From positions 8,854-72,853 of the forward strand of contig CAYRDC010000006.1 of assembly GCA_964422925.1 (NCBI GenBank): 64,000 nucleotides of DNA, given 5' to 3'. A model generated the notes under the pieces. It was not told the origin of the DNA and searched no databases. It was given only the letters and a program-made list of their open reading frames with translations. This stretch comes from an uncultured Chitinophagales bacterium. GTDB taxonomy: Bacteria > Bacteroidota > Bacteroidia > Chitinophagales > S012-47. Below, piece after piece: positions 805 through 36,622 of the stretch. Numbering within the stretch: position 1 is the first letter of the stretch; every line of letters begins with the position of its first letter. A program made the position numbers and the translations under genes.

Positions 805-1578
805 TTGAAAGACCTTGGACATATATTGCAACAGTTTGACCCTATCACCCTGAAGGAGATGGATGCGGTTTCATTGATGAACCGCCATGATTCCAAGTTT
901 GTCTTTCACAGGAATTTACTGTTGTCTGTACTGGAAGAACTGCAATCTGATTACAGAATCCTCGAAGTAAAAGGAAACCGGTTAAGCCGGTACGAAACCA
1001 TTTACTTTGACACGGAAGATTTCCTGTTTTACCACTTGCATCATAACGGGAAGCGCAACCGGCTCAAAGTCCGGATAAGGCAATATGTAGATATCGGACT
1101 GACCTTTATGGAAATCAAGAAGAAGAATAACAAATCAAGAACGGTTAAAAAAAGGATAAAAGTCGGCAAGCTTAGTCAGCAGTTTGACCAGCAAGGGCTG
1201 GCTTTGCTTAAGGCCTATACCGACCTCGACCCTAAATCCATCCGTCCAACCCTTCACGTAAATTTCAAACGGATTACCTTGGTTTGCAGGGATATGAGCG
1301 AAAGGTTGACCATTGACATAGACTTGGTTACTTCCAATTCTACCCGGCAAAAAGATTTCCGCAATATTGTGATTGCAGAGGTAAAACAGGATGGCAAGAA
1401 TTTACATTCGCCTTTTTTCAAGGTAATGCGCAAGTACCGGATTCATGAAAACCGGTTCAGCAAGTATTGCATGGGCATTATCTATACCCATCCGGGAATA
1501 AAGATCAACCGGTTTAAACCAAGGATTCTAAAATTAAACAAGATCACGAATGGAACATTTGGCTTACGAAGTGCTTAA
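805..1578 (+). CDS. VTC domain-containing protein (triphosphate-tunnel, polyphosphate-polymerase-like)
   Basis: TTG start directly after the upstream stop. Alternating charged beta-strand motifs of a tunnel fold are present: RYETIYFDT, RLKVRIRQY, FMEIKKK, RLTIDIDL, VIAEVKQ. Confidence 0.75.
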   Translation: MKDLGHILQQFDPITLKEMDAVSLMNRHDSKFVFHRNLLLSVLEELQSDYRILEVKGNRLSRYETIYFDTEDFLFYHLHHNGKRNRLKVRIRQYVDIGLTFMEIKKKNNKSRTVKKRIKVGKLSQQFDQQGLALLKAYTDLDPKSIRPTLHVNFKRITLVCRDMSERLTIDIDLVTSNSTRQKDFRNIVIAEVKQDGKNLHSPFFKVMRKYRIHENRFSKYCMGIIYTHPGIKINRFKPRILKLNKITNGTFGLRSA

Positions 1579-2260
1579 CCTGCCTGTTCTGGCGGTAAAA
1601 TTTCTGGGTATAAAGCTATATGATAAAGATTTGTGGGAGTTGATTCTCAGATTTTCCTTCAACCTGTTGGTCACTGCTATCATCATCCGGGGGATTTACT
1701 TTCGCTATCGTAAAGACAGCGAATACTATTTCGCATATTTCATGTTCAGCATTATTATTTTCTTTGTTATTTTTCTTTTAAATAATGTAAAACTAAGTAT
1801 TGGCTTTGCCTTTGGCTTGTTTGCTGTTTTTGCCATTCTTCGTTACCGCACCGCCACCATTCCAATCCGTGAAATGACTTACCTGTTTGTGGTAATTACA
1901 GTGGCCTTGCTTAATGCATTGGCCAATAAAAAAGTAACCTACGCGGAATTGTTGTTCACTAACCTGGCTATCGTGTCGGCTATCTACCTAATGGAAAAGG
2001 CCAATTTCCGCAAGCAAATGATGTCGATGTACGTCAATTATGAAAAAATCGAAAACATTAAACCCCAACGGCATCAGGAATTGCTCAAAGACCTGAAAGA
2101 AAGGACCGGGCTTGACATTGTACGATTAGATATTCTCAGAGTGAATTTTATGACGGATACCGCCCGCATTAAAATATTCTATAAATCGGGCAGTAGTTCT
2201 ACGTTCCTCACCGATAATGAAGTACAGGACCTGAATTATGATTCGGAAGATAACGGCTAG
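1550..2260 (+). CDS. DUF4956-like multi-pass membrane protein
   Basis: Overlaps the VTC gene by 29 nt. It has several hydrophobic helices followed by a soluble tail (IENIKPQRHQELLKDLKERTGLDIVRLDI). It matches my recollection of DUF4956, the usual partner of bacterial VTC genes. Confidence 0.65.
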   Translation: MEHLAYEVLNLPVLAVKFLGIKLYDKDLWELILRFSFNLLVTAIIIRGIYFRYRKDSEYYFAYFMFSIIIFFVIFLLNNVKLSIGFAFGLFAVFAILRYRTATIPIREMTYLFVVITVALLNALANKKVTYAELLFTNLAIVSAIYLMEKANFRKQMMSMYVNYEKIENIKPQRHQELLKDLKERTGLDIVRLDILRVNFMTDTARIKIFYKSGSSSTFLTDNEVQDLNYDSEDNG

Positions 2261-2885
2261 CCTTTGGGTTTTGGTGGTATGGCTTTTATTCCCTTCCCTG
2301 GTCCGCGCCCAAACGAGTGATGTGGAAACATGGGCAGGGACTGTAGTAATATTTGATTTGCCAAAGGGCTTTGATATATCCATGGAAGAGCAACTGAGGC
2401 TAAATCAGAATGCTTCCAGTCTGAAATCTTTACTGACTGAAGTGGAAGCGGGATGGAAAATGAACAAGTATCTGAGTTTCGGAGCCTCCTACCGATTTGT
2501 TTACCGCCCGACCTTTAACAGGAACCGCTACAGCCTGATTACGAAGCAGCGCTACCGTTCCAAACCTTTTACTTTCAAAAACCGGATCAAATACGAATAT
2601 GAAACCGAAGTGGCCCATACACCCGGCAGCCGGATCAGGGACCGGATAGCTATTGACTGGAAAACAAGCAAATTACTGACGCTGAGCATTAATAATGAAT
2701 GGTTTTACCCGCTCGGGGCCAAAGGCGGTTTTTTCGACCAGTACCGTATCGGGGCCAGGGTTGATTTCAAGCTTAACAAGAGAAACCATATCCGGGCAGG
2801 CTATATCTATGAGCAGCAGATTCAGCAGCCCAATCCCGCCACTTCCCATATTTTCCGGGTACGGTACCTGGTGACCCTGTTTTAA
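2238..2885 (+). CDS. DUF2490-like predicted outer-membrane beta-barrel protein
   Basis: Overlaps the upstream gene by 23 nt. It has a signal peptide (LFPSLVRAQ), alternating amphipathic strands and a terminal aromatic residue (VTLF). Confidence 0.5.
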   Translation: MIRKITASLWVLVVWLLFPSLVRAQTSDVETWAGTVVIFDLPKGFDISMEEQLRLNQNASSLKSLLTEVEAGWKMNKYLSFGASYRFVYRPTFNRNRYSLITKQRYRSKPFTFKNRIKYEYETEVAHTPGSRIRDRIAIDWKTSKLLTLSINNEWFYPLGAKGGFFDQYRIGARVDFKLNKRNHIRAGYIYEQQIQQPNPATSHIFRVRYLVTLF

Positions 2886-2886
2886 C

Positions 2887-4305
2887 TTACCGGACGATCA
2901 GGGGCCGGATGCTGGTCCTGTCAGCACTTTGAAACCGGACCAGGTAGTATCCTGAGGCAAATCCATCGAGCGGAAAGAGGAATTGTTGTTCTCCCCCAGA
3001 CAAACGGCCCGTGGCGATTGTATTCCCCTCCAAATCAGTAAGTGTAAGAAAAACAGGAGCGGTTGCGGGATGGTCCAGGACAATCCTGGCAGATGCTGAA
3101 GCCGGATTCGGGTAAATTCGCCAATCCGGATTTTCTGAAATATCCGTTATACCAACCAATGGATTAATGGTAAAATGCCGGGTATAGGTCTTCCCGTTAT
3201 AATCCGCCTCAAAGGTCCACTGCCCAGTGGGTTCTCCCGTTCCGGCTACCATCCACCAATAAGCATAAGCGGCCACATAAAACGGCCAGGGTGAATTCCA
3301 TGACCAGGTGTTCCATACCGAATTGTTCGGCCTCCGGATGGTAATATTGACCAGGTCATTGGTATTCAAATTCCGGAAATGGATATCGAGGTAAATGGTA
3401 TCCAGGGGTGAAAACGCGCCTTTTTCGTGAGGGATCTCCTGGGCCGGGCAAGCCGGAATTTCAGGGGGCGCGTAACCGGTAGCCAGGCGATTGATGCCTT
3501 TTTCCAGGTAAGGGAGCTGGTTGTTCCACCAGCTTGAATTGTTGAATATGTTGCATGAGCCGTAAAACGGATCAATCAATCGCTGGGAAGCATCGTACAC
3601 TTCAAAATGCAAGTGAGGACCCGTGCTGTTGCCGGAGGAGCCGGCAATACCCAAGTATTCCCCGGCATTTACCGACTGTCCCACCCCTTTGGAAGTCAGA
3701 CTACCGTTTTTCATATGGCCGTACCAGGCTATGGAACCATCACTGTGTTGAATATAGACAGCATTCCACAGGTTGTTGTTAGTGGTACAGCTGTGGTCAT
3801 ATTCTCCATCATTTTTGTACAGGACCACCCCGGGAGCAGCTGCTACCACCTCCACATAGCCGGAATCCATTTTCAACCACGGATAAGGCCAAAGGTAAAA
3901 ATCCGTACCCCGGTGATTATAGCCATTCTGTGTATCGTAGGTAAGCTGTCCGCAATGGTAATCCAACAGATGATTCGGGTAGGTGGTGTCATTATCGACA
4001 TATCCTGTAATGGTGAAAAAACCGGGATCAGACAATCCGCTTTTTAACCGGAGCGGTAAATTGAACAAAACCTGCAGCGTTCCATCCGCGGCAGGCAGGA
4101 GCCCTTCCGATTGTAACATCTCCCGGTTTCGGTTAATCTGCTCCCAAATCATGACCCGCTGTTCGGGTGTCGGGCCGTCCGGCCCCGGAACAGGAGCCGG
4201 CCGGAACACAGGTTCCGGGCCGGAAAAATCCGGTGAAACATTTTGTCCGTTAACAACAAAACCGGCTGCCAATAAGCAGGTGATAGTTATTAAAATCTGT
4301 TTCAT
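2887..4305 (-). CDS. M23/LytM family metallopeptidase with T9SS type A C-terminal sorting domain
   Basis: Signal peptide. M23 signature region NHRGTDF ... GNSTGPHLHFEVY. The last ~80 aa (IYPNPASASARIVL...GYYLVRFQSADRTSIRPLIVR) look like a Por/T9SS type A CTD. Confidence 0.85.
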   Translation of the reverse strand: MKQILITITCLLAAGFVVNGQNVSPDFSGPEPVFRPAPVPGPDGPTPEQRVMIWEQINRNREMLQSEGLLPAADGTLQVLFNLPLRLKSGLSDPGFFTITGYVDNDTTYPNHLLDYHCGQLTYDTQNGYNHRGTDFYLWPYPWLKMDSGYVEVVAAAPGVVLYKNDGEYDHSCTTNNNLWNAVYIQHSDGSIAWYGHMKNGSLTSKGVGQSVNAGEYLGIAGSSGNSTGPHLHFEVYDASQRLIDPFYGSCNIFNNSSWWNNQLPYLEKGINRLATGYAPPEIPACPAQEIPHEKGAFSPLDTIYLDIHFRNLNTNDLVNITIRRPNNSVWNTWSWNSPWPFYVAAYAYWWMVAGTGEPTGQWTFEADYNGKTYTRHFTINPLVGITDISENPDWRIYPNPASASARIVLDHPATAPVFLTLTDLEGNTIATGRLSGGEQQFLFPLDGFASGYYLVRFQSADRTSIRPLIVR

Positions 4306-4349: not shown

Positions 4350-6260
4350 TCAAACCGGATCGGTCATGGCCCCACCCGGGTAAATCTGTTGCCGGTACTT
4401 CCGGCTGGGGGATTCAATCAAAGGCCCCAGCCCCAGGGTGGGCCACTTGGCATCCACGCTGTCCATGGTTTCCATATCGGCACAAATAATATTGGGCCAG
4501 TCCCTGTCAAACCCATCGTCTTTCCGGGTTTTCCGGGTTCCGTCAATGCCCGCGTGCGAAGGCCCTGTGCCATCGGAAGGAACCAGGAAAACATCCCGGC
4601 CGGGATCCATGTTGTTGGTAACCCGCCAAATTATATCGTGCAGGCTGCCGATATCGGTGACCGGTTCGCAATATAAAATCCATTTGACCAGTCTGAGCCC
4701 GTCCAAGCGGAACAGCCGCTCGTTCAAATGGCGGATAAAGCCGGGGCCCGATTTTTCGACTGCCACGGCCACCACAGAAATGCCCCGGGCGAGCAGCGAG
4801 TCGTTATGGCCGGTAATAGCCGGAAAATCTTTCTTCACCTGGTCCCAGTCAATCCGGATTTCCCGTGGATCGGGATTCACTGCCCCGCCAGGCCGTATTT
4901 CTTCCGGGAGTTTTTTCGTGGCGTCAATAAACATTTTACCACCAAAGGCAAAGTGGCTGCAACTGTGATCCAGCACATCCATTGGGCCCTTGCCGAAAAT
5001 GATATCCGAGGCAGGGTTTACATTTTCAGATACATGCCGGGCCAGGGCCTCGTAATCATGAATATTCAACCCATCGTCCACCGCAACCAGTATCTTGTTA
5101 AACATCATCTGCCCGGCTCCCCACATGGCATTCTTTACCTTATAGGCATGTCCGGGATATTCTTTTTTCAGGCTGGTTATCGTAAGATTGTGGAACACTC
5201 CTTCCACGGGCATATCCATGTCGGATAATTCCGGGAGCAATGTCATGCGGATCGGTGCCAGGAAAATCCGTTCGGTGGCTTTCCCGATCCAGGCGTCTTC
5301 CTGGGGTGGTATGCCTACGATGGTGGAGGGATAGATCGCCTCTCTCCGGTGCGTGACGGCTGTGACATGAAACCGCGGGTAATAATCGGCCAGGCTGTAA
5401 TAGCCTGTATGGTCTCCGAACGGGCCTTCCAGGATCAGCTCTTCTTCCGGGTCAACATAACCTTCAATGATGATATCGGCTTCAGCCGGGACCCAGATAT
5501 CCTGGGTGAGGCATTTGACAAGCTCCACTCTTTTTTTCCGGATGAACCCGGCCAGGATGTATTCATCCACATTGGGCGGCAGGGGCGCGGTGGCGCTGTA
5601 TGCCAGTACCGGGTCTCCTCCCAGGGCAACGGCCACCGGCATTTTTTTGCCCAGTTGCTGAAATTTCCTGAAATGCCCGGCTGACACTTTGTGCTTATGC
5701 CAGTGCATTCCCGTCAGGTCCGGGCCAAAAACCTGCATCCGGTACATGCCCACGTTCCGGGTACCCGTTTCCGGGTCCTGCGTGTGAATGACCGGCAGGG
5801 TAATGAACGGCCCGCCATCTTGGGGCCAGCAGGTCATTACAGGAAAACGGGTGAGGTCTGGCGGGTCCATCACCACCTGCTGGCACGCGCCCCGTCCTTT
5901 GCGCTTCCTGGGCATCCAGGAGGCAATACGCCCAAGCCGGGGTAACATTCTTAACTGATCCATAATCTGGCTGCCCGGCTTCATAAACACCTGGAAAAGC
6001 GACTCCACCTCACGGGCAATATCATCCAGGTTTTCAACCCCGAGGGCCAGGCACATCCTACGGTAGGAACCCAACGCATTGATCAGGAGCGGGAATTCCG
6101 TACCGGTATTTTCGAACAGCAGGGCCGGGCCATTGCTCTTGGATACACGGTCTGTGATATCCGCAATTTCCAGGTGGGGATTAACGTATTCATGGATCCT
6201 TACCAATTCCCCCGCTTCTTCCAGGGCTTGTACAAATGCATGCAGGCTGCTGTAAGCCAT
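4350..6260 (-). CDS. UbiD family decarboxylase (menaquinone/ubiquinone-type prenylated-FMN decarboxylase)
   Basis: UbiD-like sequence throughout (VFGPDLTGMHWHKHK, GPFGDHTGYY). I prefer the ATG at 6260 (MAYSSLHAFVQALEEAGELVRI) over the track start at 6302, which abuts the upstream terminator. Confidence 0.85.
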   Translation of the reverse strand: MAYSSLHAFVQALEEAGELVRIHEYVNPHLEIADITDRVSKSNGPALLFENTGTEFPLLINALGSYRRMCLALGVENLDDIAREVESLFQVFMKPGSQIMDQLRMLPRLGRIASWMPRKRKGRGACQQVVMDPPDLTRFPVMTCWPQDGGPFITLPVIHTQDPETGTRNVGMYRMQVFGPDLTGMHWHKHKVSAGHFRKFQQLGKKMPVAVALGGDPVLAYSATAPLPPNVDEYILAGFIRKKRVELVKCLTQDIWVPAEADIIIEGYVDPEEELILEGPFGDHTGYYSLADYYPRFHVTAVTHRREAIYPSTIVGIPPQEDAWIGKATERIFLAPIRMTLLPELSDMDMPVEGVFHNLTITSLKKEYPGHAYKVKNAMWGAGQMMFNKILVAVDDGLNIHDYEALARHVSENVNPASDIIFGKGPMDVLDHSCSHFAFGGKMFIDATKKLPEEIRPGGAVNPDPREIRIDWDQVKKDFPAITGHNDSLLARGISVVAVAVEKSGPGFIRHLNERLFRLDGLRLVKWILYCEPVTDIGSLHDIIWRVTNNMDPGRDVFLVPSDGTGPSHAGIDGTRKTRKDDGFDRDWPNIICADMETMDSVDAKWPTLGLGPLIESPSRKYRQQIYPGGAMTDPV

Positions 6261-6304
6261 ATCGGAGCTTTGCCATAAAATTAAGAAAGCGTTTGCTTGC
6301 AAGC

Positions 6305-6336
6305 AGAAAAAAAGGGGGCTGCCATCGACAGCCCCG
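6305..6336 (-). terminator. rho-independent terminator after the barrel gene
   Basis: On the minus strand: GGGGCTG-TCGATGG-CAGCCCC, a perfect 7-bp stem (6315-6335), followed by CTTTTTTTCTG. Confidence 0.6.
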
Positions 6337-6358
6337 GGACACTGACATGATCCAATAA

Positions 6359-7858
6359 CTAAAACCGGAGACCAAAAGTGAACAAAATATTGGAGGAAGC
6401 ATTGGTTAAAACGGCTCCTCCGACTGTTTCATTTGGATCGCTTAGTGTGTAAGGCACATCCATTGAAGTGGAACTGGCGCTCACGTAGGTCAGGTCCATA
6501 AAATAGTTCTTGTCGTGTAAACCGCCTCCGAGTGAGAAAGCAGCCCGGCTCAGGTCAGCATCCTGAACCGCCACGCCCGGCTGGAACGGAGAACCGGAAT
6601 AATTTATTCCACCCCGGATGATGAAAACCCCGAACCGGTATTCTCCGCCAAGCCGGAGGGATCCCGAGGGGCCGTATTTGTCACGGATGGTTTGGTTCAG
6701 CTGGCTTTCAAAGGCCTGTTCTGAAGTGGCAAACCCGAAAAAGGTATTGCTGTAATCCAGCCATTCGTAATCGACCGAAATCAAGCCTCTGGTTTTAAAC
6801 AAAACGGCCCCGCTGATCACAGCTCGCCAGGGGGTAGTCAGGTTGTACTTGAAAGTGCCGTCCGGGCTGTCCCATTGGTAATTGCCCGTACTCTCCAAGT
6901 CAGAACTCATGGTAGAGGAATAATCGTCCCGCAGGGAAAGGAAGGAAGGACTGTGCAATGCACCGCCTACGCGGATATAGGGCGTAATGCGGTAAATCAG
7001 CCCAAGCCGGAAGTTAACCCCTGAGCCAGTTGTTTTCAGGTAGTCGGTTTTCGTAAAACTTTTGAATCCCGCAATGGTATCATTTACATCCTCTTCATGA
7101 TAAGAAGATTCTTCCGTATACCGAATCCGGGGCATCCCGATCGTAACACCGATTTGTATCTTGTTGTCATAATTACCAGCAATCGAAAAAAGATATTCAT
7201 CAAAACCGCCCCGGGTTGAAATTTTACGCGATTGCTCCACCCCGCCATACGGTACTTTGGATGCATAATGCATGGTATCGGTCAGGATGGGATCTATCAG
7301 GTAGGTTTGGTAAGCCAGCCCCGCGTCAAAGGGGTAGCGGTCGGTTATTTCCGATGGAGCCACCCCGCTGCCGCTGTTGGCAATTTCCAGAAACTTGTCG
7401 ATCATCGAATTATCCGGGTTGAAGCCGTTGTAATAAACATCCCGGTTGTAATTGGCCAGGCGGTTGATCCCAAAGGCATAGCTCACCGATTTCCAGCCCG
7501 GGACTTCCTCCCCGTTAACCCGTTTGCTGTAGGTATTGGTAATTACCATCCCCAGGTTGCTGATATTGAAATTGTATTTAAGGTCAGTTTGCGGATTATC
7601 CCAGAAGCTGGATTGTGTACTGGCCGTAAAGATTGAAGGGGTTATCATGATTTCCGATTTACGGTAGGTGGCCAAGCCGGCAGGATTGGTAATAATAGCC
7701 CCAAAATCGCCTCCCAGAGCTCCCATGGCGCCACCCAGCCCGGTAAACCGGGCTGTGCCCCAATAATCCTGCATCGAATATCTCAAGGCATCCACATCAC
7801 TTTGCCCATAGGACTGGAAGGACACAAAAAGGGCTGTGAGGAAGAAAATTTTCTTCAT
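6359..7858 (-). CDS. FadL/TodX/PorV-like outer-membrane beta-barrel protein
   Basis: Signal peptide (FQSYGQ). The N-terminal motif GTARFTGLGGAMGALGGDFGAIITNPAGLA is typical of this barrel family. The protein ends FGLRF. It starts 23 nt after the upstream gene. Confidence 0.65.
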   Translation of the reverse strand: MKKIFFLTALFVSFQSYGQSDVDALRYSMQDYWGTARFTGLGGAMGALGGDFGAIITNPAGLATYRKSEIMITPSIFTASTQSSFWDNPQTDLKYNFNISNLGMVITNTYSKRVNGEEVPGWKSVSYAFGINRLANYNRDVYYNGFNPDNSMIDKFLEIANSGSGVAPSEITDRYPFDAGLAYQTYLIDPILTDTMHYASKVPYGGVEQSRKISTRGGFDEYLFSIAGNYDNKIQIGVTIGMPRIRYTEESSYHEEDVNDTIAGFKSFTKTDYLKTTGSGVNFRLGLIYRITPYIRVGGALHSPSFLSLRDDYSSTMSSDLESTGNYQWDSPDGTFKYNLTTPWRAVISGAVLFKTRGLISVDYEWLDYSNTFFGFATSEQAFESQLNQTIRDKYGPSGSLRLGGEYRFGVFIIRGGINYSGSPFQPGVAVQDADLSRAAFSLGGGLHDKNYFMDLTYVSASSTSMDVPYTLSDPNETVGGAVLTNASSNILFTFGLRF

Positions 7859-7881
7859 GGTTCAATGAATTTATTATTGGT

Positions 7882-9444
7882 TTATCGCGGGGTTCTTCCG
7901 GAAGAGCCACTGCTTCGTCCGCTGCTCCTGGATCCTCCTGACCGGGAACCGGATGAATAGGATCCTGAATGCGATCCCCGGCTATACGATCCGGAACCGG
8001 AATGATAACTCCGGCCTCCTGAACTGCGGCTATATCCCTGGTTACCCGAAGAATGGTTGCCGCGTCCGCTGTAAGAGGATGAAGAACCGCGAGACCGGCT
8101 CCTTGACCCGGAATTCCGGGAATATGACCTGGAATTGCTGTTACCTTTCGAATAACTCCGGCTATTTTGATGTTTGTTGGACCCCCGGTAACCTGACGAC
8201 CGGTTCTCACTGGAATTATTTCTCACCCGCGGAGGTCGGGATTGATTCCGCGGAGTTTGGTTTTGTTGATTTGTCCTTGGACCCGGTTGGCTGCTCCGGG
8301 GCGGGTTATAATTATGCCGGTCATTACCCTGTGCGGGAGTGCTGTATGAATTCCGGCCCGGTTGGTTGATGCGGTTCCTGTCATCCGGAATTCGGTCAGC
8401 CGGTTTTTCATTGGTACGCACCGGTTGGGAAATATGGTGATCGTTGTCAGGTTCCCCGAGCGGTTTATTCATTTCCGAGGTGGAAAGATGCTCATTCCGG
8501 CCCTCGGTACGGTTATATTCTGTCTGATTCCTGAATTCCCGGTTGGTGGAAGACGGATCGGTACCTGTTCCATTCGTGTTTCCATTTACTACGCCTTCCC
8601 GCACATTGCCTGAAGCATTTTCAAACGGATCTGCACTTCCGCCCTTTTCCATAATCCCTGAACGGCCAGCCCCGATATCTGACTGGCTGCCACCGGAAGT
8701 TTTTCCATATTTAATCTGCGATTGCCCCGTAGTTCTTCCCCCTCCGGTATTGGATCCTAATGAATGACGTGGTCCGTAATAAGTATTTCCGGGTGTTGAA
8801 GTAGTGTTATAATAGCTCCAATTGTAGTTCCCATATCCTGAATTGTAATATCCGTCCCAGTAACCATTGTTATATCCATTCCAATATCCCCAGCCATAGG
8901 AATAATAGGGTGAATACCAAGGGTAATAATAGGAGCTGTACCATCCATAATCATACCATGGCGAGTACCAACCGCCATAATAAGGATAATACCAGCTATA
9001 ATAATATGGTCTGTAATACCACGGTGTGCCCCAGCCGATATAAATGTTCCATCCTGAATACCAGGGATCGTAAGTGTACCAGTAATAATCCGTATAGCAG
9101 CCGCTGTAAAAACTGAATCCTACATAAGGCCTGTGGAACCTGCGGATCCGGGAAGTGTAGTAGAAGTCATAATCATCAAACCAGTCGTCATCGTCATAAT
9201 CGTAATAATTCTCAATGTATGTGTCGCCACCGCCTTGATACGTGTCATCCGCGTCATAATAATCACCAGTCGCATCGGATTCCACAACATCCAGATCATC
9301 TGTAATCACTACATCATCTGCTATATTTTCGTCCGGCACATAATATACATCATCGTAATAAACAGTGCGCCCCTGGTAATAAGTGGTTGTACAGGCGCTG
9401 GTCAGCAGAAGTGCGAGGGCTGAAAGGTAATAAATGGTTTTCAT
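7882..9444 (-). CDS. low-complexity lipoprotein (acidic/Tyr block, Tyr/Trp block, polar linker, Ser/Arg/Gly tail)
   Basis: Uninterrupted 520-codon ORF. It has a signal peptide plus Cys (LLLTSAC). It is the first gene of a two-gene unit closed by a terminator. Competing plus-strand ORFs are short low-complexity mirrors. Confidence 0.7.
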   Translation of the reverse strand: MKTIYYLSALALLLTSACTTTYYQGRTVYYDDVYYVPDENIADDVVITDDLDVVESDATGDYYDADDTYQGGGDTYIENYYDYDDDDWFDDYDFYYTSRIRRFHRPYVGFSFYSGCYTDYYWYTYDPWYSGWNIYIGWGTPWYYRPYYYSWYYPYYGGWYSPWYDYGWYSSYYYPWYSPYYSYGWGYWNGYNNGYWDGYYNSGYGNYNWSYYNTTSTPGNTYYGPRHSLGSNTGGGRTTGQSQIKYGKTSGGSQSDIGAGRSGIMEKGGSADPFENASGNVREGVVNGNTNGTGTDPSSTNREFRNQTEYNRTEGRNEHLSTSEMNKPLGEPDNDHHISQPVRTNEKPADRIPDDRNRINQPGRNSYSTPAQGNDRHNYNPPRSSQPGPRTNQQNQTPRNQSRPPRVRNNSSENRSSGYRGSNKHQNSRSYSKGNSNSRSYSRNSGSRSRSRGSSSSYSGRGNHSSGNQGYSRSSGGRSYHSGSGSYSRGSHSGSYSSGSRSGGSRSSGRSSGSSGRTPR

Positions 9445-9550
9445 CTTACGACTCCTTTTTCTTATGTAATTTTGCCCGTTGGATTCAGGAACGGGGCAGT
9501 TGGTTTAACTGTCATGAATGATTTAGCAAGAACTATTCCAAATTTATAGC

Positions 9551-11026
9551 ATGGCCAAGGAAATCACAAGCAGAGCGGAAGACTATTCCCAGTGGTACAA
9601 TGATTTGGTTATAAAAAGCGGGTTGGCAGACTATTCGGCTGTAAGGGGTTGTATGGTGATAAAACCGCACGGATATGCGATCTGGGAAAAAATGACCCAA
9701 ATCCTGGACAAGAAATTTAAGGAAACAGGACATCAAAACGCGGCTTTCCCCCTGTTCATTCCCAAAAGTTTCCTAAGCAAGGAGGCAGAACACGTAGAAG
9801 GATTTGCCAAAGAATGTGCCGTAGTGACTCATTACCGTTTGAAATATGATGCAAAGAAAAAAGAATTGATCGTAGACCCGGAGGCAAAACTGGAAGAAGA
9901 GCTAATCGTTCGCCCAACATCCGAGACCATCATCTGGAACACTTATAAAAACTGGATCCAATCATACCGAGACCTGCCGTTGCTAATCAACCAGTGGGCC
10001 AATGTGGTTCGCTGGGAGATGCGTACCCGGTTATTCCTGAGAACTTCAGAATTTTTCTGGCAGGAAGGGCATACGGCTCATGCCACCCGGAAAGAAGCGG
10101 AAGAGGAAGCAAAACTTATCCTGAACATTTATTCCGATTTTATTGAAAATCACCTGGCCATTCCCGTGACCAAGGGAATAAAAACACCAAACGAGCGGTT
10201 TGCCGGGGCGGTAGACACCTATACCGTGGAGAGCCTGATGCAGGACGGCAAGGCCCTGCAAATGGGTACATCGCATTTCCTGGGACAGAATTTCGCCAAG
10301 GCTTTTGACGTACAGTTTTTAAGTAAGGAAGGTAAGCTGGAATATGTTTGGGCCACCTCATGGGGGGTATCCACACGGCTGATGGGCGCTTTGGTTATGG
10401 CCCATTCCGATGATGACGGATTGATACTGCCTCCAAAGCTTGCGCCTTACCAGGTAGTCATAGTCCCGATTTACAAGAAAGAAGAACAACTGGGTCAAAT
10501 CCGGGAAAAAGCCGCAGAAATCAGCACGGCCCTGGAAGATAAGGGAATCACGGTCCGGTTTGACGGGGATGACAGCAAAAAACCCGGATGGAAATTTGCC
10601 GAGCATGAATTAAAGGGCGTACCGGTACGCATTGCCATCGGACCCCGTGACCTGGAACAGGGCACCGTGGAAATAGCCCGTAGGGACACCCGTGAAAAAG
10701 CTGTTTACAACCTGGAAGGCCTGGCCGAAAGAATCGAACACTTGTTGAGCGATATACAGGATACCATGTTCCAGAAGGCAAAGGCGTATCGCGATCAGGC
10801 AACTTACCAGGCGGATGACTTTGATACCTTCCGGGAAATCCTGGAAGAAAAAGGCGGTTTTGTATACGCGCATTGGGATGGCAGTACCGAAACTGAACTG
10901 AAAATTAAGGAATTAACCAAGGCTACTATTCGTTGCATTCCCCTGGATGGCGAAGCGGAACCCGGACAATGCATTCTGACAGGCCGACCGTCTGCCAGGC
11001 GCGTGCTGTTTGCCAGGGCATACTAA
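9551..11026 (+). CDS. proS: proline--tRNA ligase (class II, archaeal/eukaryote-like type)
   Basis: Full-length match to my memory of ProRS: N-terminal [35 protein letters not shown], class II motifs, and a C-terminal zinc-type domain ending ARAY. Confidence 0.95.
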
Positions 11027-11044
11027 CCAATCAAACCTGCCAAT

Positions 11045-11746
11045 ATGAAAAAGCAAATAGTCGATTCAGGCTCCGAACTCATTACTGAAGCCCTGAAAGA
11101 AAAAGCCTGCCTCAAGCAATCGGTTTACAACAATACCCTTCAGATTTTCGGGGAATTCAAGAAGGCCATGCAGTTAATTGTCCAGGAGCAGCGTGAAAAA
11201 ATCAACCAAATCGACCAGCGGGTGGAAGTGTCTTACCAGGCCAGTGGAGATTTTGAAGCCCAGATTAAGATGGGCGGGGATGTTCTCATCTTCAGCATGC
11301 ACACCAACGTGTTCAATTTTGATGAAAATCATGCTGTCCACAACATGAAATATGTAAAAGACAACCCACTGAATGCCTATTGCGGGATGATCAATATTTA
11401 CAATTTCCTGGCTGACTCCTTTAAATACAACCGGCTGAATGACCTGGGTTATCTTATTGCCCGTATTTTTGTGAACCGGGAAAACCATTTTTTCGTGGAA
11501 GGGAAGCGGCAATTAGGATTCCTCTATAACGATTTTGCTAACGCGGTGATAAATTCCGTGTATGTAAAGGCCATTATCGAATCAGCTATTTTGTACGCCC
11601 TCGAATTTGATCTGCTGGTGCCGCCTTATGATGAGATCAAGGAGATTTCGCTGGGCAATAAACTGCAGCAAAGCGGTTCGGCTATATATAAAACCGGCAA
11701 ACGGCTGGGATTCCATTTCAAAAATGACAACCTCGATATAGGCTGA
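11045..11746 (+). CDS. hypothetical protein (follows proS)
   Basis: 233-aa ORF with ordinary amino-acid composition, starting 18 nt after proS. I recognise no family. Confidence 0.55.
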   Translation: MKKQIVDSGSELITEALKEKACLKQSVYNNTLQIFGEFKKAMQLIVQEQREKINQIDQRVEVSYQASGDFEAQIKMGGDVLIFSMHTNVFNFDENHAVHNMKYVKDNPLNAYCGMINIYNFLADSFKYNRLNDLGYLIARIFVNRENHFFVEGKRQLGFLYNDFANAVINSVYVKAIIESAILYALEFDLLVPPYDEIKEISLGNKLQQSGSAIYKTGKRLGFHFKNDNLDIG

Positions 11747-31900: not shown

Positions 31901-34900
31901 ATGAAAAAAATATTCCTGATCCTTCCGTTGCTGTTGCTTCCTCATTTTCTCCTTTCGCAAACTCCATTTATTCGAATTTTTGGTGGACCTGGAACCGATA
32001 TCGGCAATGGAGTGATTCAGGCCTATGATGGCGGATATTGGGTAGTTGGCAGAACTAATTCTTTTGGCGCTGGTGGAACGGATATCATTGTTCTGAAATT
32101 AAACACATCCGGGGTAATTGAATGGGAAAAAACCTATGGCGGTGTGAACAATGAAGGAGGAATCTATGGTGTTTTTGCCACGGAAACCCAAGACCACGGA
32201 CTGGCTGTTGCCTGTGAAACCAAGAGCTTCAATGCCACGCAAAATGATGCATATCTGATCAAAATTGACAGTGTTGGCAATGTACTTTGGGATGCAAGAT
32301 ACGATGCCGGACCCGGAACTTCAGGAGGTGATTACTTCCGGGGCATTAAAGAATTAAGCACAGGAGAACTGCTGTTGACTGGCTCAATCAACAGTGGAGT
32401 TCTTGGACTCTCAGATGCTTTAATCATGAAATTCACTGCATCAGGCAATCTGATATGGAAGAAAATTATTGGCGGTATTTACGTAGATCACATCTACGAT
32501 GTGATCGAATTACCCAATGGCGATTACGCCTTTTTCGGTAATACAGGCACATGGGGCAACGGCTCAAACAATGCCTGGGTTATTAGAACAGATACAAGTG
32601 CAAATCTGGGCTGGGCGAAAGTTTATGCAGGGTCAGGAATTGATAACTTTTCAGAAGGAATACTGACTTCTGACGGTGGATTATTGCTGGGAGGCATTAC
32701 TTCTTCCTACGGTTCCGGGAATTTCGACATTTATCTTGTCAAACTTAGCATTGACGGTACGCTTCAATGGGCAAAAACCTATGGTGGATCAAATCTCGAA
32801 TGGCTGAATGGATTGCAGGAGCTACCTTCGGGCGGGTACTTGTTGAGAGTATATTCAAAATCGTATGGGCCCGGTGAGGATATTTTGCTAATCAGCATCG
32901 ACACTACCGGCAATATTACCTGGAGCAAATCCTATAAAATAATTCAAAGTGGTAGTTCAGGATCCCTGGTAAAAATCAAAGGTGCAATCGATGTAACCAA
33001 TGATGGAGGGTTTATTTTCACCGGATGGGTTATTGACAGCAGTGGATTTGGCGGAAAGGATATCCTTGTATTCAAGTCAGATTCGAGTGCTTATGCTTTG
33101 TGCGACACAGTACTTGTCACAAGCACAACACCGACCGTGCAACCTATTAATGCAAGTCCTTCTTTTACCAATGTAGGGGCAATTCATGATCCATTGACAA
33201 TACATACTTCTCCGACAGTATCCGACACAGCCTCTTGTCCGTGTTTTCAGGTTTCCTCTGCTTTAATCTCCAACGACACCACCATTTGCCAGGGAGACAG
33301 CATTCCTTTGCAGGCTACCGGAGGAACAACTTACAATTGGTCGCCTGCATCGGGATTAAGTTGCAACACTTGCTCCAACCCGGTGGCCAGCCCAAATGTC
33401 ACCACCACCTACACAGTTACCTTTGACCAGGGGCAGGTTTGCGAATCCCAGGACAGCATCACAGTATTTGTACACGTGCCTCCTTCCATCAACTTGGGGG
33501 CTGACACCACCATTTGCTCTTACGACCAGCTCGTACTGGATGCCGGAACGGGTTTTTCCTCTTACCTCTGGGAAGACTCATCCACCACCCAGACGCATAC
33601 CGTGTCGTGGTCCGGTGATACTACAATGATGTTTTATGTAACTGCTACGGATTCCATCGGATGTGCTTCCGCTGATACCATACTGGTCACTTTTGACAAG
33701 CCACCGGTTATTGACCTCGGGCCTGATACCTTGCTGTGTGCGGGCACTCAGTATCTGCTGGATGCGGGACCGGGGTTTGCCAGCTATGTCTGGCAGGATA
33801 AATCAAGCGGGCAGACCTACATGGCTTCCGCGCTGAACGATACGACCATTTTATACACAGTTACCGGAAAGGATTATATAGGTTGTATTTCTTCCGATTC
33901 TGTTTGGATCACCTTTCACAAGCCACCTGTCATCCAACTCGGGCCCGACACGGTGATTTGTTCCGGTGCACAACTGTTGCTGGATGCCGGGCCGGGATTT
34001 GTTTCCTACCTGTGGGAAGACCAATCGACCGGGCAAATCCATATCGTTTCCGCATCCAACGATACTTCCCTGCTATATTACGTGACCGGTACTGATTCGC
34101 AGGGATGCGTTTCTTCGGATACCATCCAGGTTGGATTCCATGTTCCGCCAGCCATAGACCTGGGGCCTGATACTTTGCTTTGCCAGGCTGACACAATACT
34201 GCTGGATGCCGGGCCCGGGTTTACCACATACCTTTGGGAAGACCAGTCAACCGGGCAAACACACCTGGTGTCCAGCACAGCCGACACCGTGCTTCTGTAT
34301 CATGTGACTGCCACGGATAGCCTCGGCTGCACATCTGCAGATTCCATCAGCATTCACTTTCACAATACCCCGTCAATCGACCTCGGGCCCGACACCGTAT
34401 TGTGCGATGGTGGTCAAATCCTGCTGGATGCCGGGCCGGGGTTCAGCCAATACACCTGGCAGGATCAGTCCAGCGGGCAGTTTTTCACCGCTTCAGCCTC
34501 TGGTGACACTACCATCCTGTTTTATGTGACTGCCACGGATAGTCTCGGCTGTACTTCTGCCGACAGTATTGAAGTTTACTTCCATCTTCTTACAGCCATT
34601 CATCTCGGGAATGACACCCTGCTTTGTGCCGGTGAACAATTGCTGCTGGATGCCGGGCCGGGGTTCGCTTCATATGTTTGGGAAGACCAGTCCACCGGGC
34701 AAACCCATATCGCTTCCGCGTCAAACGATACCTCCCTGCTATATTACGTGACCGGTACTGATACGCAGGGATGCGTTTCTTCGGATACTATCCAGGTTGG
34801 ATTCCACGTTCCGCCCGCCATAAACCTGGGGCCTGATACTTTGCTTTGCCAGGCTGACACAATACTGCTGGATGCCGGGCCCGGGTTTACCACATACCTT

Positions 34901-36622
34901 TGGGAAGACCAGTCAACCGGGCAAACACACCTGGTGTCCAGCACAGCCGACACCGTGCTTCTGTATCATGTGACTGCCACGGATAGCCTCGGCTGCACAT
35001 CTGCAGATTCCATCAGCATTCACTTTCACAATACCCCGTCAATCGACCTCGGGCCCGACACCGTATTGTGCGATGGTGGTCAAATCCTGCTGGATGCCGG
35101 GCCGGGGTTCAGCCAATACACCTGGCAGGATCAGTCCAGCGGGCAGTTTTTCACAACTACGGCCACTGGCGACACTTCCATCCTGTATTTTGTTACCGCC
35201 ATGGACAGCCTCGGCTGTACCGCTGCCGACAGTATAGAAGTTCACTTCCATCTTCTTACTGCCATTCATCTCGGGAATGATACCCTGCTGTGTGCCGGTG
35301 AACAATTGCTGCTGGATGCCGGGTCGGGGTTTACTTCTTATGTCTGGGAAGACCAGGCCACCGGGCAAACCCATATTGCCTCGGTTACAGGCGATACCAC
35401 CATGGTTTATTTCGTGATAGCCACAGATTCCGTGGGATGCCAGTCATCAGACACCATCCAGGTCAGCTTCCACCAGGCGCCTGTAATTGACCTCGGGCCC
35501 GACACAACAGCCTGTGCATTGGGGCAGCTGGTATTGGACGCGGGGCCCGGGTTTGTATCTTACGTATGGGAGCACCAGTCCACCGGGCAAACGCATACCG
35601 TGTCAGGACAAAACGGCACCACCAGCACTTATTATGTAACCGCACTGGACTCTTTCGGATGCCTGTCCACAGACACCATTACTGTTTCTTACCTGACCGC
35701 TATCCCGATTAACCTGGGCCCGGACACAATCGTTTGCGGAAACGCTCAATTACTGCTCGATGCCGGACCTGGATTTGCTTCCTACATCTGGGAGGATCAA
35801 TCCACCGGGCAAACGCATCTCGCATACGGTCAGCCCGGAACCATTAACACATATTACGTGACCGCCACTACCCAGGACGGATGCGTGTCAACCGATACCA
35901 TTGTGGTGGAATTCATGGATTACTTATCCATTCACCTGGGACCGGACACCACCATTTGTGAGAACACCCACTTCTACCTGAACGCGGGACCCGGGTTTGT
36001 CTCCTATGTCTGGAATGACCAGACCACCGGGCAAAAGCATCTCGTTACAGGTCAGGGGGGAACTACCACTTTCTATTCTGTGCATGCCATCGATCCAAAT
36101 GGCTGCGAGGCATCAGACAGTATCCTGATTCATTTTCTGACAGTGAATGAAGTCGACCTCGGCCCCGATACCACGATTTGCAATAATGCCTCTTTGGTAC
36201 TGGATGCCGGGCCGGGTTACACGGCCTACCATTGGTCAAACGGAAGCCAGGCCCAGACCATCACCTTCCAGGACACGCTGGGCACCTACACCGTGTACGT
36301 GGATGTGATTGACTCCAACGGCTGCGCGTCTTCCGATACCATTGTGATTACGGTTGACCGTTGCATCGGCCTGGAAACCCCTGCCCTGAACCCGCTGCTT
36401 GACATTTATCCGAACCCGGCTGAAAACCTTCTGTACATCCGGACCGGACGGCCCTGCCGGCTGGAGGTCTGCAATGCCCTCGGGGAAACCGTCCTTCCGC
36501 CTGTTGAACTGGCCGCTGGAACCCGCCAGATGGATATTTCAATGCTGCCGGCCGGCATGTACCTGCTCCGGTTCTCCGGCAAACGGTTCAATGCCACGCA
36601 CAAGCTCATCAAGGAAAAATAA
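31901..36622 (+). CDS. 1573-aa secreted repeat protein (putative adhesin) with T9SS type A C-terminal sorting domain
   Basis: Signal peptide. About 7-8 propeller-like ~50-aa repeats (WEKTYGG, WAKTYGG, WSKSYK) lie in aa 20-440. One divergent unit plus 13 regular 74-aa Cys-pair repeats follow. The last ~75 aa (LDIYPNPAENLLYIRT...GMYLLRFSGKRFNATHKLIKEK) form a type A CTD. Confidence 0.9.
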   Translation: MKKIFLILPLLLLPHFLLSQTPFIRIFGGPGTDIGNGVIQAYDGGYWVVGRTNSFGAGGTDIIVLKLNTSGVIEWEKTYGGVNNEGGIYGVFATETQDHGLAVACETKSFNATQNDAYLIKIDSVGNVLWDARYDAGPGTSGGDYFRGIKELSTGELLLTGSINSGVLGLSDALIMKFTASGNLIWKKIIGGIYVDHIYDVIELPNGDYAFFGNTGTWGNGSNNAWVIRTDTSANLGWAKVYAGSGIDNFSEGILTSDGGLLLGGITSSYGSGNFDIYLVKLSIDGTLQWAKTYGGSNLEWLNGLQELPSGGYLLRVYSKSYGPGEDILLISIDTTGNITWSKSYKIIQSGSSGSLVKIKGAIDVTNDGGFIFTGWVIDSSGFGGKDILVFKSDSSAYALCDTVLVTSTTPTVQPINASPSFTNVGAIHDPLTIHTSPTVSDTASCPCFQVSSALISNDTTICQGDSIPLQATGGTTYNWSPASGLSCNTCSNPVASPNVTTTYTVTFDQGQVCESQDSITVFVHVPPSINLGADTTICSYDQLVLDAGTGFSSYLWEDSSTTQTHTVSWSGDTTMMFYVTATDSIGCASADTILVTFDKPPVIDLGPDTLLCAGTQYLLDAGPGFASYVWQDKSSGQTYMASALNDTTILYTVTGKDYIGCISSDSVWITFHKPPVIQLGPDTVICSGAQLLLDAGPGFVSYLWEDQSTGQIHIVSASNDTSLLYYVTGTDSQGCVSSDTIQVGFHVPPAIDLGPDTLLCQADTILLDAGPGFTTYLWEDQSTGQTHLVSSTADTVLLYHVTATDSLGCTSADSISIHFHNTPSIDLGPDTVLCDGGQILLDAGPGFSQYTWQDQSSGQFFTASASGDTTILFYVTATDSLGCTSADSIEVYFHLLTAIHLGNDTLLCAGEQLLLDAGPGFASYVWEDQSTGQTHIASASNDTSLLYYVTGTDTQGCVSSDTIQVGFHVPPAINLGPDTLLCQADTILLDAGPGFTTYLWEDQSTGQTHLVSSTADTVLLYHVTATDSLGCTSADSISIHFHNTPSIDLGPDTVLCDGGQILLDAGPGFSQYTWQDQSSGQFFTTTATGDTSILYFVTAMDSLGCTAADSIEVHFHLLTAIHLGNDTLLCAGEQLLLDAGSGFTSYVWEDQATGQTHIASVTGDTTMVYFVIATDSVGCQSSDTIQVSFHQAPVIDLGPDTTACALGQLVLDAGPGFVSYVWEHQSTGQTHTVSGQNGTTSTYYVTALDSFGCLSTDTITVSYLTAIPINLGPDTIVCGNAQLLLDAGPGFASYIWEDQSTGQTHLAYGQPGTINTYYVTATTQDGCVSTDTIVVEFMDYLSIHLGPDTTICENTHFYLNAGPGFVSYVWNDQTTGQKHLVTGQGGTTTFYSVHAIDPNGCEASDSILIHFLTVNEVDLGPDTTICNNASLVLDAGPGYTAYHWSNGSQAQTITFQDTLGTYTVYVDVIDSNGCASSDTIVITVDRCIGLETPALNPLLDIYPNPAENLLYIRTGRPCRLEVCNALGETVLPPVELAAGTRQMDISMLPAGMYLLRFSGKRFNATHKLIKEK
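33480..36360 (+). repeat. 13 tandem 222-bp (74-codon) coding repeats
   Basis: Each unit reads roughly I-D-L-G-P-D-T-x-x-C-x(4)-L-L-D-A-G-P-G-F-x-S-Y-x-W-E-D-Q-S-T-G-Q-T-H ... Y-Y-V-T-x-T-D-S-x-G-C-x-S-x-D-T-I-x-V-x-F. The period was counted from the translation. Confidence 0.85.
34070..35386 (+). repeat. higher-order 666-bp (three-unit) tandem duplication inside the repeat array
   Basis: 34158-34488 is base-for-base identical to 34824-35154 (331 bp, compared line by line). The flanks diverge gradually. Antisense shadow ORFs 34078-34287 and 34744-34953 are near-identical for the same reason. Confidence 0.9.

Follow-up and report, generated by a model that had tools for sequence, protein, structure and literature searches.

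What could a 520-amino-acid (aa) lipoprotein, whose chain falls into acidic, aromatic, polar and basic blocks, do in a bacterial envelope? This question is raised by an open reading frame (ORF) in a stretch of 64,000 nucleotides (nt) from an uncultured Chitinophagales bacterium (GenBank assembly GCA_964422925.1, contig CAYRDC010000006.1, positions 8,854 to 72,853); the whole stretch is called the window in the following, and the ORF the Y-rich gene. An original prediction had described its product as a chain of low-complexity blocks which might form a matrix, adhesive or coacervate at the surface or in the periplasm. The main new finding is a genomic pairing: the Y-rich gene belongs to an unannotated family of the Bacteroidota and stands directly upstream of a gene for a FadL-family barrel of the outer membrane (OM). 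The two genes of the window are:

7882..9444, minus strand: the whole Y-rich gene, an ORF of 520 aa with an ATG start, coding for a predicted disordered lipoprotein of the unannotated family.
6359..7858, minus strand: the partner gene, coding for a 499-aa, 14-stranded OM barrel of the FadL family (assigned with Pfam, AlphaFold2 (AF2) and Foldseek).

Gene order was compared in loci which had been retrieved with an alignment of the barrel alone, one genome per GTDB species; the best 80 of more than 571 were scanned with hidden Markov models (HMMs) of both families, and 74 of them had enough upstream DNA. Of the 74 usable loci, 72 had the Y-rich gene as the immediate upstream neighbour of the barrel gene, in equal orientation. 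Frameshifts or stops in relatives had been named beforehand as evidence against the original prediction; the frame was intact in 71 of these 72 loci. Carriers of the pair belong to the Bacteroidales, Saprospiraceae, Flavobacteriales and Chitinophagales, and all 80 retrieved loci are metagenome-assembled genomes (MAGs), with no cultured carrier among them. In the window the barrel gene begins 23 nt past the stop codon of the Y-rich gene, and the two-gene unit probably ends at a hairpin; a divergent proS gene lies on the other side:

6315..6335, minus strand: terminator-like G+C hairpin with a 9-bp stem (7 GC pairs) and a T run, directly past the barrel gene.
9551..11026, plus strand: proS, for prolyl-tRNA synthetase, in divergent orientation; as a neighbour it is conserved, but it is not claimed as a functional part.

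The proS gene was divergent and immediately upstream of the Y-rich gene in 58 of 59 loci, and four homologues from different orders had an identical layout, with proS divergent from the Y-rich gene and the barrel gene following. The single interrupted case is a Bacteroidales MAG (UBA5537, L037:3063-4446), where a frameshift or an assembly error has divided the Y-rich gene between two overlapping frames. One locus with the Bacteroidota gene pair is labelled Bifidobacterium breve (L063) and is probably a mislabelled MAG contig.

Protein searches yielded 209 relatives of the Y-rich protein, nearly all of 450-620 aa and every one labelled "hypothetical"; an exhaustive HMMER scan placed at least 536 clusters at 50% identity in the family, whose HMM the window ORF matched at 1.7e-85. 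By name, the sources are MAGs of Bacteroidales, Flavobacteriales, Saprospiraceae, Lentimicrobiaceae and Chitinophagales. One member labelled Thiofilum sp. (P0042) is near-identical to a Saprospiraceae protein (P0053), probably because its MAG contig is mislabelled. No match to the Y-rich protein was obtained in Pfam or NCBIfam, the 87 aligned members gave nothing in Pfam but one marginal extensin match, and a sequence search of the PDB returned just a chance match (0.26) to the MafB2 toxin. The earlier statement that no characterised bacterial envelope protein of this kind is known was thus borne out for Pfam, NCBIfam and the PDB. Literature searches for Tyr-rich Bacteroidota lipoproteins turned up the EL3 loop of BamA alone; the family is unmentioned in the searchable literature, and it is without name, profile model or structure.

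The following parts of the gene were distinguished, all on the minus strand:

9391..9444, minus strand: signal peptide and lipobox, aa 1-18, ending in LLLTSA before C18 (from the sequence, the Cys of the family and an AF2 helix at aa 3-17).
9340..9360, minus strand: YYDDVYY motif, aa 29-35, with D31, D32 and Y34 at least 90% conserved.
9163..9360, minus strand: acidic block, aa 29-94, net charge -25 (recomputed composition).
9034..9183, minus strand: positionally conserved core, aa 88-137, DDYDFYYTSRIRRFHRPYVGFSFYSGCYTDYYWYTYDPWYSGWNIYIGWG, with D93, Y96, R99, R102, F103, Y117 and G131 at least 90% conserved.
8806..9162, minus strand: Tyr/Trp block, aa 95-213, containing YWxGYxxGYWxGYY at aa ~186-199 with G190, Y191 and Y195 conserved.
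8767..8781, minus strand: YYGPR motif, aa 222-226, at the boundary of head and tail, with Y223 and R226 at least 90% conserved.
8248..8805, minus strand: polar G/N/T/S/R/P/Q linker, aa 214-399 (186 aa), conserved in composition only.
7885..8247, minus strand: S/R/G tail, aa 400-520, net charge +21 (recomputed composition), ending in GRTPR.

On recount, the ORF, the strings quoted for it and its nucleotide coordinates were all confirmed. For the 119 residues of the Tyr/Trp block the recount gave precisely 40 Tyr and 14 Trp, which had been counted by hand as about 40 and 14. The residue set given for the last 121 aa was identical to that recounted (S46, G21, R20, N11, Y8, H4, Q3, P3, K2, and V, E and T once each). 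The description of aa 29-94 as almost only D, Y, V, T, E and G was slightly generous, since these make up 51 of 66 residues (D22, Y12, V6, T4, G4, E3). The linker contains G25, N22, T19, S19, R17, P16 and Q11. Among the 95 window ORFs with a length of 150 aa or more, the best Tyr plus Trp fraction over 119 aa was 0.45 for the Y-rich protein and 0.15 for the next ORF. Compared with shuffled sequences, aromatic residues were clustered (z = 7.8) and charges segregated (z = 3.7; the observed value was reached by 0 of 500 shuffles). The mature protein is near-exactly neutral, with a net charge per residue of +0.002, a fraction of charged residues of 0.20 and a kappa of 0.26. The summed Wimley-White interfacial free energy was -49.6 kcal/mol for the Tyr/Trp block and positive for all other blocks. 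The low complexity does not stem from a repeat expansion at the DNA level, since Tandem Repeats Finder gave only two trivial arrays (scores 33-37) and no meaningful tandem repeats.

The architecture predicted for the single protein proved to be a property of the family. Of 192 near-full-length members, 89% have the order of acidic block, aromatic block and S/G-rich tail, which it had been proposed to compare in related genomes. The family medians of net charge are -9 for the first 110 aa and +12 for the last 120 aa, in 83% of members the final four positions include two or more R or K, and the tails carry repeats of the SYSxPSRS type. When the chain is split at YYGPR, the head of the window protein has a charge of -24 and the tail of +24; a net negative head and a net positive tail were found in 91 of 91 scorable members, and head and tail charges were anticorrelated (Spearman rho = -0.42, p = 4e-5; 91 members, kinship not corrected for). 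Since the signs are constant and the values anticorrelated across homologues, the polyampholyte character seems to have been under selection in the family.

The picture of low-complexity blocks stands, therefore, as far as the blocks go; what it overlooked, besides the linkage to the barrel, is a set of motifs conserved by position. YDDVYY lies 8-12 residues past the lipobox Cys, as judged from the alignment and a histogram of spacings, and the core follows the consensus YDYxYSSRIRRFHxP..G..YYD..YTN.YWY...P...G.SIY.G. The motifs YWxGYxxGYWxGYY and YYGPR are likewise kept across the family, and all the conserved residues named in the list above, from D31 to R226, are among the columns of at least 90% conservation. 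An AF2 model built with an alignment of 87 sequences had a mean predicted local distance difference test score (pLDDT) of 46.5, which predicts disorder; its only helices outside the signal peptide (aa 92-100 and 120-124) fall within the conserved core. On this model, the Y-rich protein is a disordered chain bearing a few short linear motifs, a description which is more specific than low-complexity blocks.

The first 18 residues, MKTIYYLSALALLLTSAC, fit a PROSITE-type lipobox pattern: MKTIYYLSALALLLTSA followed by C agrees with [LIVMFWSTAG]2-[LIVMFYSTAGCQ]-[AGS]-C, and the h-region contains no charged residue. The lipoprotein-type signal proposed originally was thereby upheld, and the protein is predicted to be exported as a lipoprotein by a Sec signal with lipobox. 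A Cys was present at the equivalent site behind a hydrophobic stretch in 126 of the 171 members with a recognisable DDVYY. The other 45 have a signal-peptidase I signal and are not lipoproteins; their mature N-terminus reads Q(x0-3)DDVYY. From these 45 members it follows that the lipid anchor can be dispensed with, but not the N-terminal DDVYY.

In Bacteroidota, the lipoprotein export signal consists of at least two acidic residues among the six after the Cys (PMC12578637). Between positions +2 and +7, acidic residues numbered 0 in 118 of the 126 lipoprotein forms, 1 in seven and 2 in one; the window protein reads CTTTYYQ and does not carry the signal. No C-terminal sorting domain for type IX secretion (T9SS; Por_Secre_tail and related) was found in the Y-rich protein by Pfam or NCBIfam, its C-terminus being the basic S/G/R tail. 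Since a signal for surface export is absent, the default location is probably periplasmic, usually with a tether to the inner leaflet of the OM. Of the location "surface or periplasmic" which had been left open, the surface version thus loses ground, both to the 118 forms without export signal and to the 45 members that are not lipoproteins, and the periplasm is favoured.

The barrel matched Pfam Toluene_X PF03349 with 38.5 bits (cutoff 29.7; E = 6.5e-10), and its AF2 model had a pLDDT of 90.1. The best PDB matches in Foldseek were BtBamG, E. coli FadL, FjBamG, PgBamG, TodX, TbuX and CymD, with BtBamG 9hiv_F at the top (E = 1e-18) and the FadL/BamG range extending from 1e-16 to 1e-18. The strand count and the assignment of loops are our own and were taken from the DSSP string. 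In the alignment, the hatch has an invariant NPA motif (N58, P59, A60), the residues N147 and S151 of the kink in strand S3 are conserved, and several columns in the extracellular loops L2 and L5 reach at least 90% conservation. Mean top-residue frequencies were 0.69 for the N-terminal tail, 0.74 for the hatch, 0.44 for the extracellular loops and 0.23 for the long periplasmic turn. In the mature barrel NPA is at positions 40-42, compared with 33-35 in FadL (as deduced from mutant names), so that the N-terminus is about 7 residues longer; it is highly conserved. FadL, TodX and TbuX share Pfam family, fold, hatch and NPA with the window barrel, which differs by being ~70-100 residues longer and by a 59-residue L2 loop. 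PorF (PG0534) was rejected as an identity for the barrel, as the literature describes it as TonB-dependent-receptor-like.

What would such a pair do? Bacteroidota OMs are built around complexes of barrels and lipoproteins, such as SusCD, the barrels of the T9SS together with their partner proteins, and the β-barrel assembly machinery (BAM) with BamG. FadL-like barrels of this phylum are known to hold surface proteins, as in BamG-BamH and PorV. BamG, which is FadL-like, accommodates BamH's N-terminus, a conserved and lipidated stretch, in a groove and between the barrels; it has a conserved N-terminal extension of 10-12 residues which runs through the lateral opening, and the genes of BamG2 and BamH2 share an operon (PMC12611786, PMC12578637). 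The resemblance to the present pair lies in a 14-stranded barrel of the FadL family with a lipoprotein, in conserved N-termini and in adjacent genes; BamG is the best structural match, and the N-terminus of the window barrel, judged from the position of NPA, is longer than that of FadL. BamH differs in being folded, surface-exposed, equipped with an export signal and carbohydrate-binding-like, whereas the Y-rich protein is predicted to be disordered and is without export signal.

Because of these precedents in the same phylum, the most economical reading is a complex of barrel and partner, in which the Y-rich protein would be a periplasm-facing, OM-tethered, disordered partner, docked by its N-terminal motifs and able to self-associate. 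The probability of this reading is put at roughly 0.35. In both proteins conservation is strongest at the N-terminus, in the N-terminal tail and hatch of the barrel and in the N-terminal motifs of the Y-rich protein. By analogy with the N-terminus of BamH on BamG, DDVYY beside the lipid anchor and the SRIRRF/YWY core could dock on the barrel, and the Tyr/Trp block could lie in the membrane interface beside it. The acidic-aromatic head and the Arg/Ser/Gly tail might then pair by charge and cation-pi contacts, within or between molecules, which would give a tethered network beneath the OM around the channel. Two roles are conceivable, handling of hydrophobic cargo via the FadL-type channel or scaffolding of the envelope.

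Several observations weigh against the docked partner. The lipid anchor is absent from 26% of members; HMM scores in the family include a large term of compositional bias; and the correlation of head and tail charges is uncorrected for kinship. By structural alignment the barrel shares 12-14% identity with BamG, and structurally it is as near to the transporter FadL. Its periplasmic turns are very short, and the sole long one (T1) is the least conserved (0.23), so that a docking surface on the periplasmic side is not obvious.

The other two usable loci, in which the Y-rich gene was replaced, count in favour of the pairing. There, the gene upstream of the barrel codes for a secreted protein of 364-374 aa with a weak DUF3300-like helical domain:

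L032:3303-4394 and L040:1932-3053: DUF3300-like short forms, in place of the Y-rich gene upstream of the barrel.

Behind the helical domain come DDVYDGDEYD, a W/Y/P/G block (PYPYWAGYPYWYGRNYWYP...), HYNGHRNS and an RGRRK end, which, to judge by its sequence, is in effect a miniature of the module of head, YYGPR motif and basic end. The wider family comprises 87 secreted proteins (P0363-P0449); some have a long P/Q/R linker, and one member comes from Aminicenantes. Its members share a conserved Trp/Tyr/Pro block (PYPYWFGYPYWY...) with invariant W280, G282, W286, W292, P296, G302 and W324, which is followed by HYYGPRRS, a P/Q/R-rich linker and a basic C-terminus. Aromatic block, YYGPR, linker and basic end are thus common to the DUF3300-like proteins (by Pfam related to YacH) and the Y-rich protein; a helical N-terminal domain of ~250 aa stands where the latter has lipobox, DDVYY and acidic block. 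In hhalign, only the YYGPR stretch could be aligned between the two families (95% probability, 17 columns). Global homology of the aromatic cores was not supported (2.4% probability with the sub-alignment), homology to E. coli YacH, a DUF3300 protein, was rejected (0.2%), and Pfam DUF3300 (PF11737) matched neither the window protein nor any of the 87 aligned members of the Y-rich family. On these grounds, motif and layout are regarded as shared, but homology is not regarded as established. Most DUF3300-like proteins with aromatic block, YYGPR and basic tail are not located beside a FadL gene; since the long forms stand alone, the module can work without an adjacent barrel gene, and this also counts against the docked partner.

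The explanation closest to the original proposal would make the Y-rich protein a self-associating material of the surface or the extracellular space, exported or anchored by the barrel and acting as adhesive, coacervate or cross-linked matrix. It appears rather unlikely. FUS-type prion-like and RGG proteins, as well as mussel foot protein 3, combine Tyr (and Trp) stickers and Arg-rich partners with Gly/Ser/Asn spacers. The composition of the Y-rich protein would follow this Tyr-Arg grammar of phase-separating and adhesive proteins, and the charge compensation of head and tail is conserved; the likeness is nevertheless one of compositional grammar only, without homology. The clustering of the aromatics in one block (z = 7.8) departs from the FUS type, where they are spread evenly, and the FUS-like Tyr residues of the tail are not conserved (five [ST]Y[ST] in the window protein, with a family median of 1). 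An envelope precedent is CsgF, which condenses at the curli channel CsgG in a manner dependent on aromatic residues (PMC10133297): it is, similarly, a disordered envelope protein at an OM channel, and it self-associates through aromatics, as the Y-rich protein may do. CsgF differs in being small, located at the cell surface, involved in amyloid secretion and unrelated in sequence, and no gene for an amyloid subunit is linked to the Y-rich locus. The conserved columns in loops L2 and L5 and the surface proteins held by BamG and PorV would also suit a material outside the cell. Export through the barrel is hard to reconcile with FadL-type barrels being plugged by the hatch, which is highly conserved here together with NPA, and neither the lipoprotein signal (lacking in 118 of 126 forms) nor a T9SS domain would direct the protein to the surface.

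An accessory to a FadL-type transporter is a second explanation: the barrel would act by lateral diffusion, and the Y-rich protein would accept, concentrate or hand over hydrophobic or aromatic cargo in the periplasm. Hatch, invariant NPA and the S3 kink are kept as in FadL, TodX and TbuX, the aromatic block is computed to partition strongly to the membrane interface, and the predicted orientation towards the periplasm fits. It remains doubtful, however, since no catabolic or uptake genes are linked to the pair, proS being the sole conserved neighbour, and since no role is given to the long basic tail. Moreover, we know of no FadL, TodX or TbuX transporter with a dedicated disordered lipoprotein partner.

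Phase separation, adhesion and mineral binding, which the original prediction had named, would be conceivable for the Y-rich protein by analogy of composition. A bolder reading can be envisaged, namely an OM device of a kind not recognised so far, in which a lateral-gate channel of the FadL type would be ringed on the periplasmic side by a tethered condensate or gel, formed from the Tyr/Trp-Asp head and the Arg-rich tail. Such an aromatic phase would allow lipids and hydrophobic or aromatic molecules to pass through the aqueous periplasm or to be retained there, as a bacterial counterpart to the selective phase of FG nucleoporins. This reading is considered improbable; if true, this would be the first dedicated family of periplasmic phase-separating lipoproteins.

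That the pair is a BAM-related module of the BamG2/BamH2 type, with the barrel as a BamA-associating paralogue of BamG and the Y-rich protein as a disordered factor in the assembly of OM proteins, is likewise a long shot. In its favour are the top structural match to BtBamG, with FjBamG and PgBamG also within the top six, the longer and conserved N-terminus (about 7 residues, compared with 10-12 in BamG) and the shared operon of BamG2 and BamH2 (PMC12578637). Bacteroidota BamA, in addition, has a disordered extracellular loop EL3 rich in Tyr, Gly and Asn. EL3 resembles the Y-rich protein as a disordered Tyr-rich segment on an OM barrel of the same phylum, and differs as a 38-residue loop inside BamA which is not a separate protein and is without charged blocks. 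The structural match has no counterpart in sequence: phmmer found no match for the barrel in the PDB, BamG chains included, at E <= 1, a profile search of the PDB found TbuX only, and the identity to BamG (12%) was no better than to FadL. The Y-rich protein, too, has neither an export signal for the surface nor the fold of BamH (two domains, surface-located, carbohydrate-binding-like), in view of its predicted disorder and of the PDB search without a real match.

That the Y-rich ORF is a spurious low-complexity frame, as might be thought because the exact 520-aa protein is absent from a collection of 15 billion proteins which contains both neighbour proteins, and because on a truncated JGI contig (L085:33-446) a 137-aa ORF of another frame was called instead, can be set aside as extremely improbable in view of the hundreds of complete homologues, alike in length, in which the motifs and the neighbouring gene are kept, of the intact frames in 71 of 72 loci and of the lack of tandem repeats in the DNA. 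The missing or mis-called protein should be attributed to fragile annotation and not to absence of the gene. A 137-aa ORF of another frame exists in the window as well (7797-8210, minus strand), overlapping the region for the Y-rich tail and the start of the barrel gene. Gene callers can mis-call members of this family, which merits a name and a profile model.

FadL-like barrels with a dedicated lipoprotein partner are thus already known in Bacteroidota, but a disordered block-polyampholyte partner has no characterised counterpart. To the repertoire of barrels and lipoproteins in this phylum the locus adds a widespread and wholly unannotated pair, with an aromatic block which in our assessment is among the most extreme in bacterial proteins. 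If the complex is true, disordered partners of OM barrels would be common in Bacteroidota; the pair would make the Tyr/Arg "sticker" grammar accessible to study outside the cytoplasm, in a bacterial system that is tractable, and it might explain handling of FadL-type cargo beyond the barrel.

The region upstream of the Y-rich gene contains one candidate promoter element, considering that the -7 promoter consensus of Bacteroidota is TAnnTTTG:

9539..9546, minus strand: TAAATTTG, a match to TAnnTTTG about 95 nt upstream of the ATG, overlapping the proS start; putative promoter element.

The 106-nt intergenic region between proS and the Y-rich gene (9445-9550), read on the minus strand, also contains a hairpin (CCCGTT...AACGGG) and, about 9 nt ahead of the ATG, the sequence AAGGAG. 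A scan for sigma-70 promoters gave matches at or below the expectation from shuffled sequences, the sigma-70 model being unsuited to Bacteroidota, and no credible Rfam match was obtained for 5800-11500. Just downstream of proS, a 233-aa ORF (11045-11746, plus strand) had no credible match in Pfam or NCBIfam; proteins of like size without Pfam match adjoin proS in two retrieved loci, L001 (229 aa) and L004 (232 aa).

Other genes of the window include three consecutive ones (805-2885, plus strand) for proteins with VTC domain, DUF4956 and DUF2490, which may form a cluster related to polyphosphate, with a component putatively located in a membrane or the OM. At 4350-6302 (minus strand) a UbiD-family decarboxylase of the futalosine pathway to menaquinone is encoded (TIGR03701, 9.6e-182); the match spans aa 23-456 of 650 and leaves a C-terminal extension of ~190 aa without an assigned domain. 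An M23 peptidase (2887-4305, minus strand) and a 1573-aa Ig-like/PKD protein (31901-36622, plus strand) both carry a T9SS sorting domain at the C-terminal end, from which it follows that the source organism should possess a type IX secretion system.

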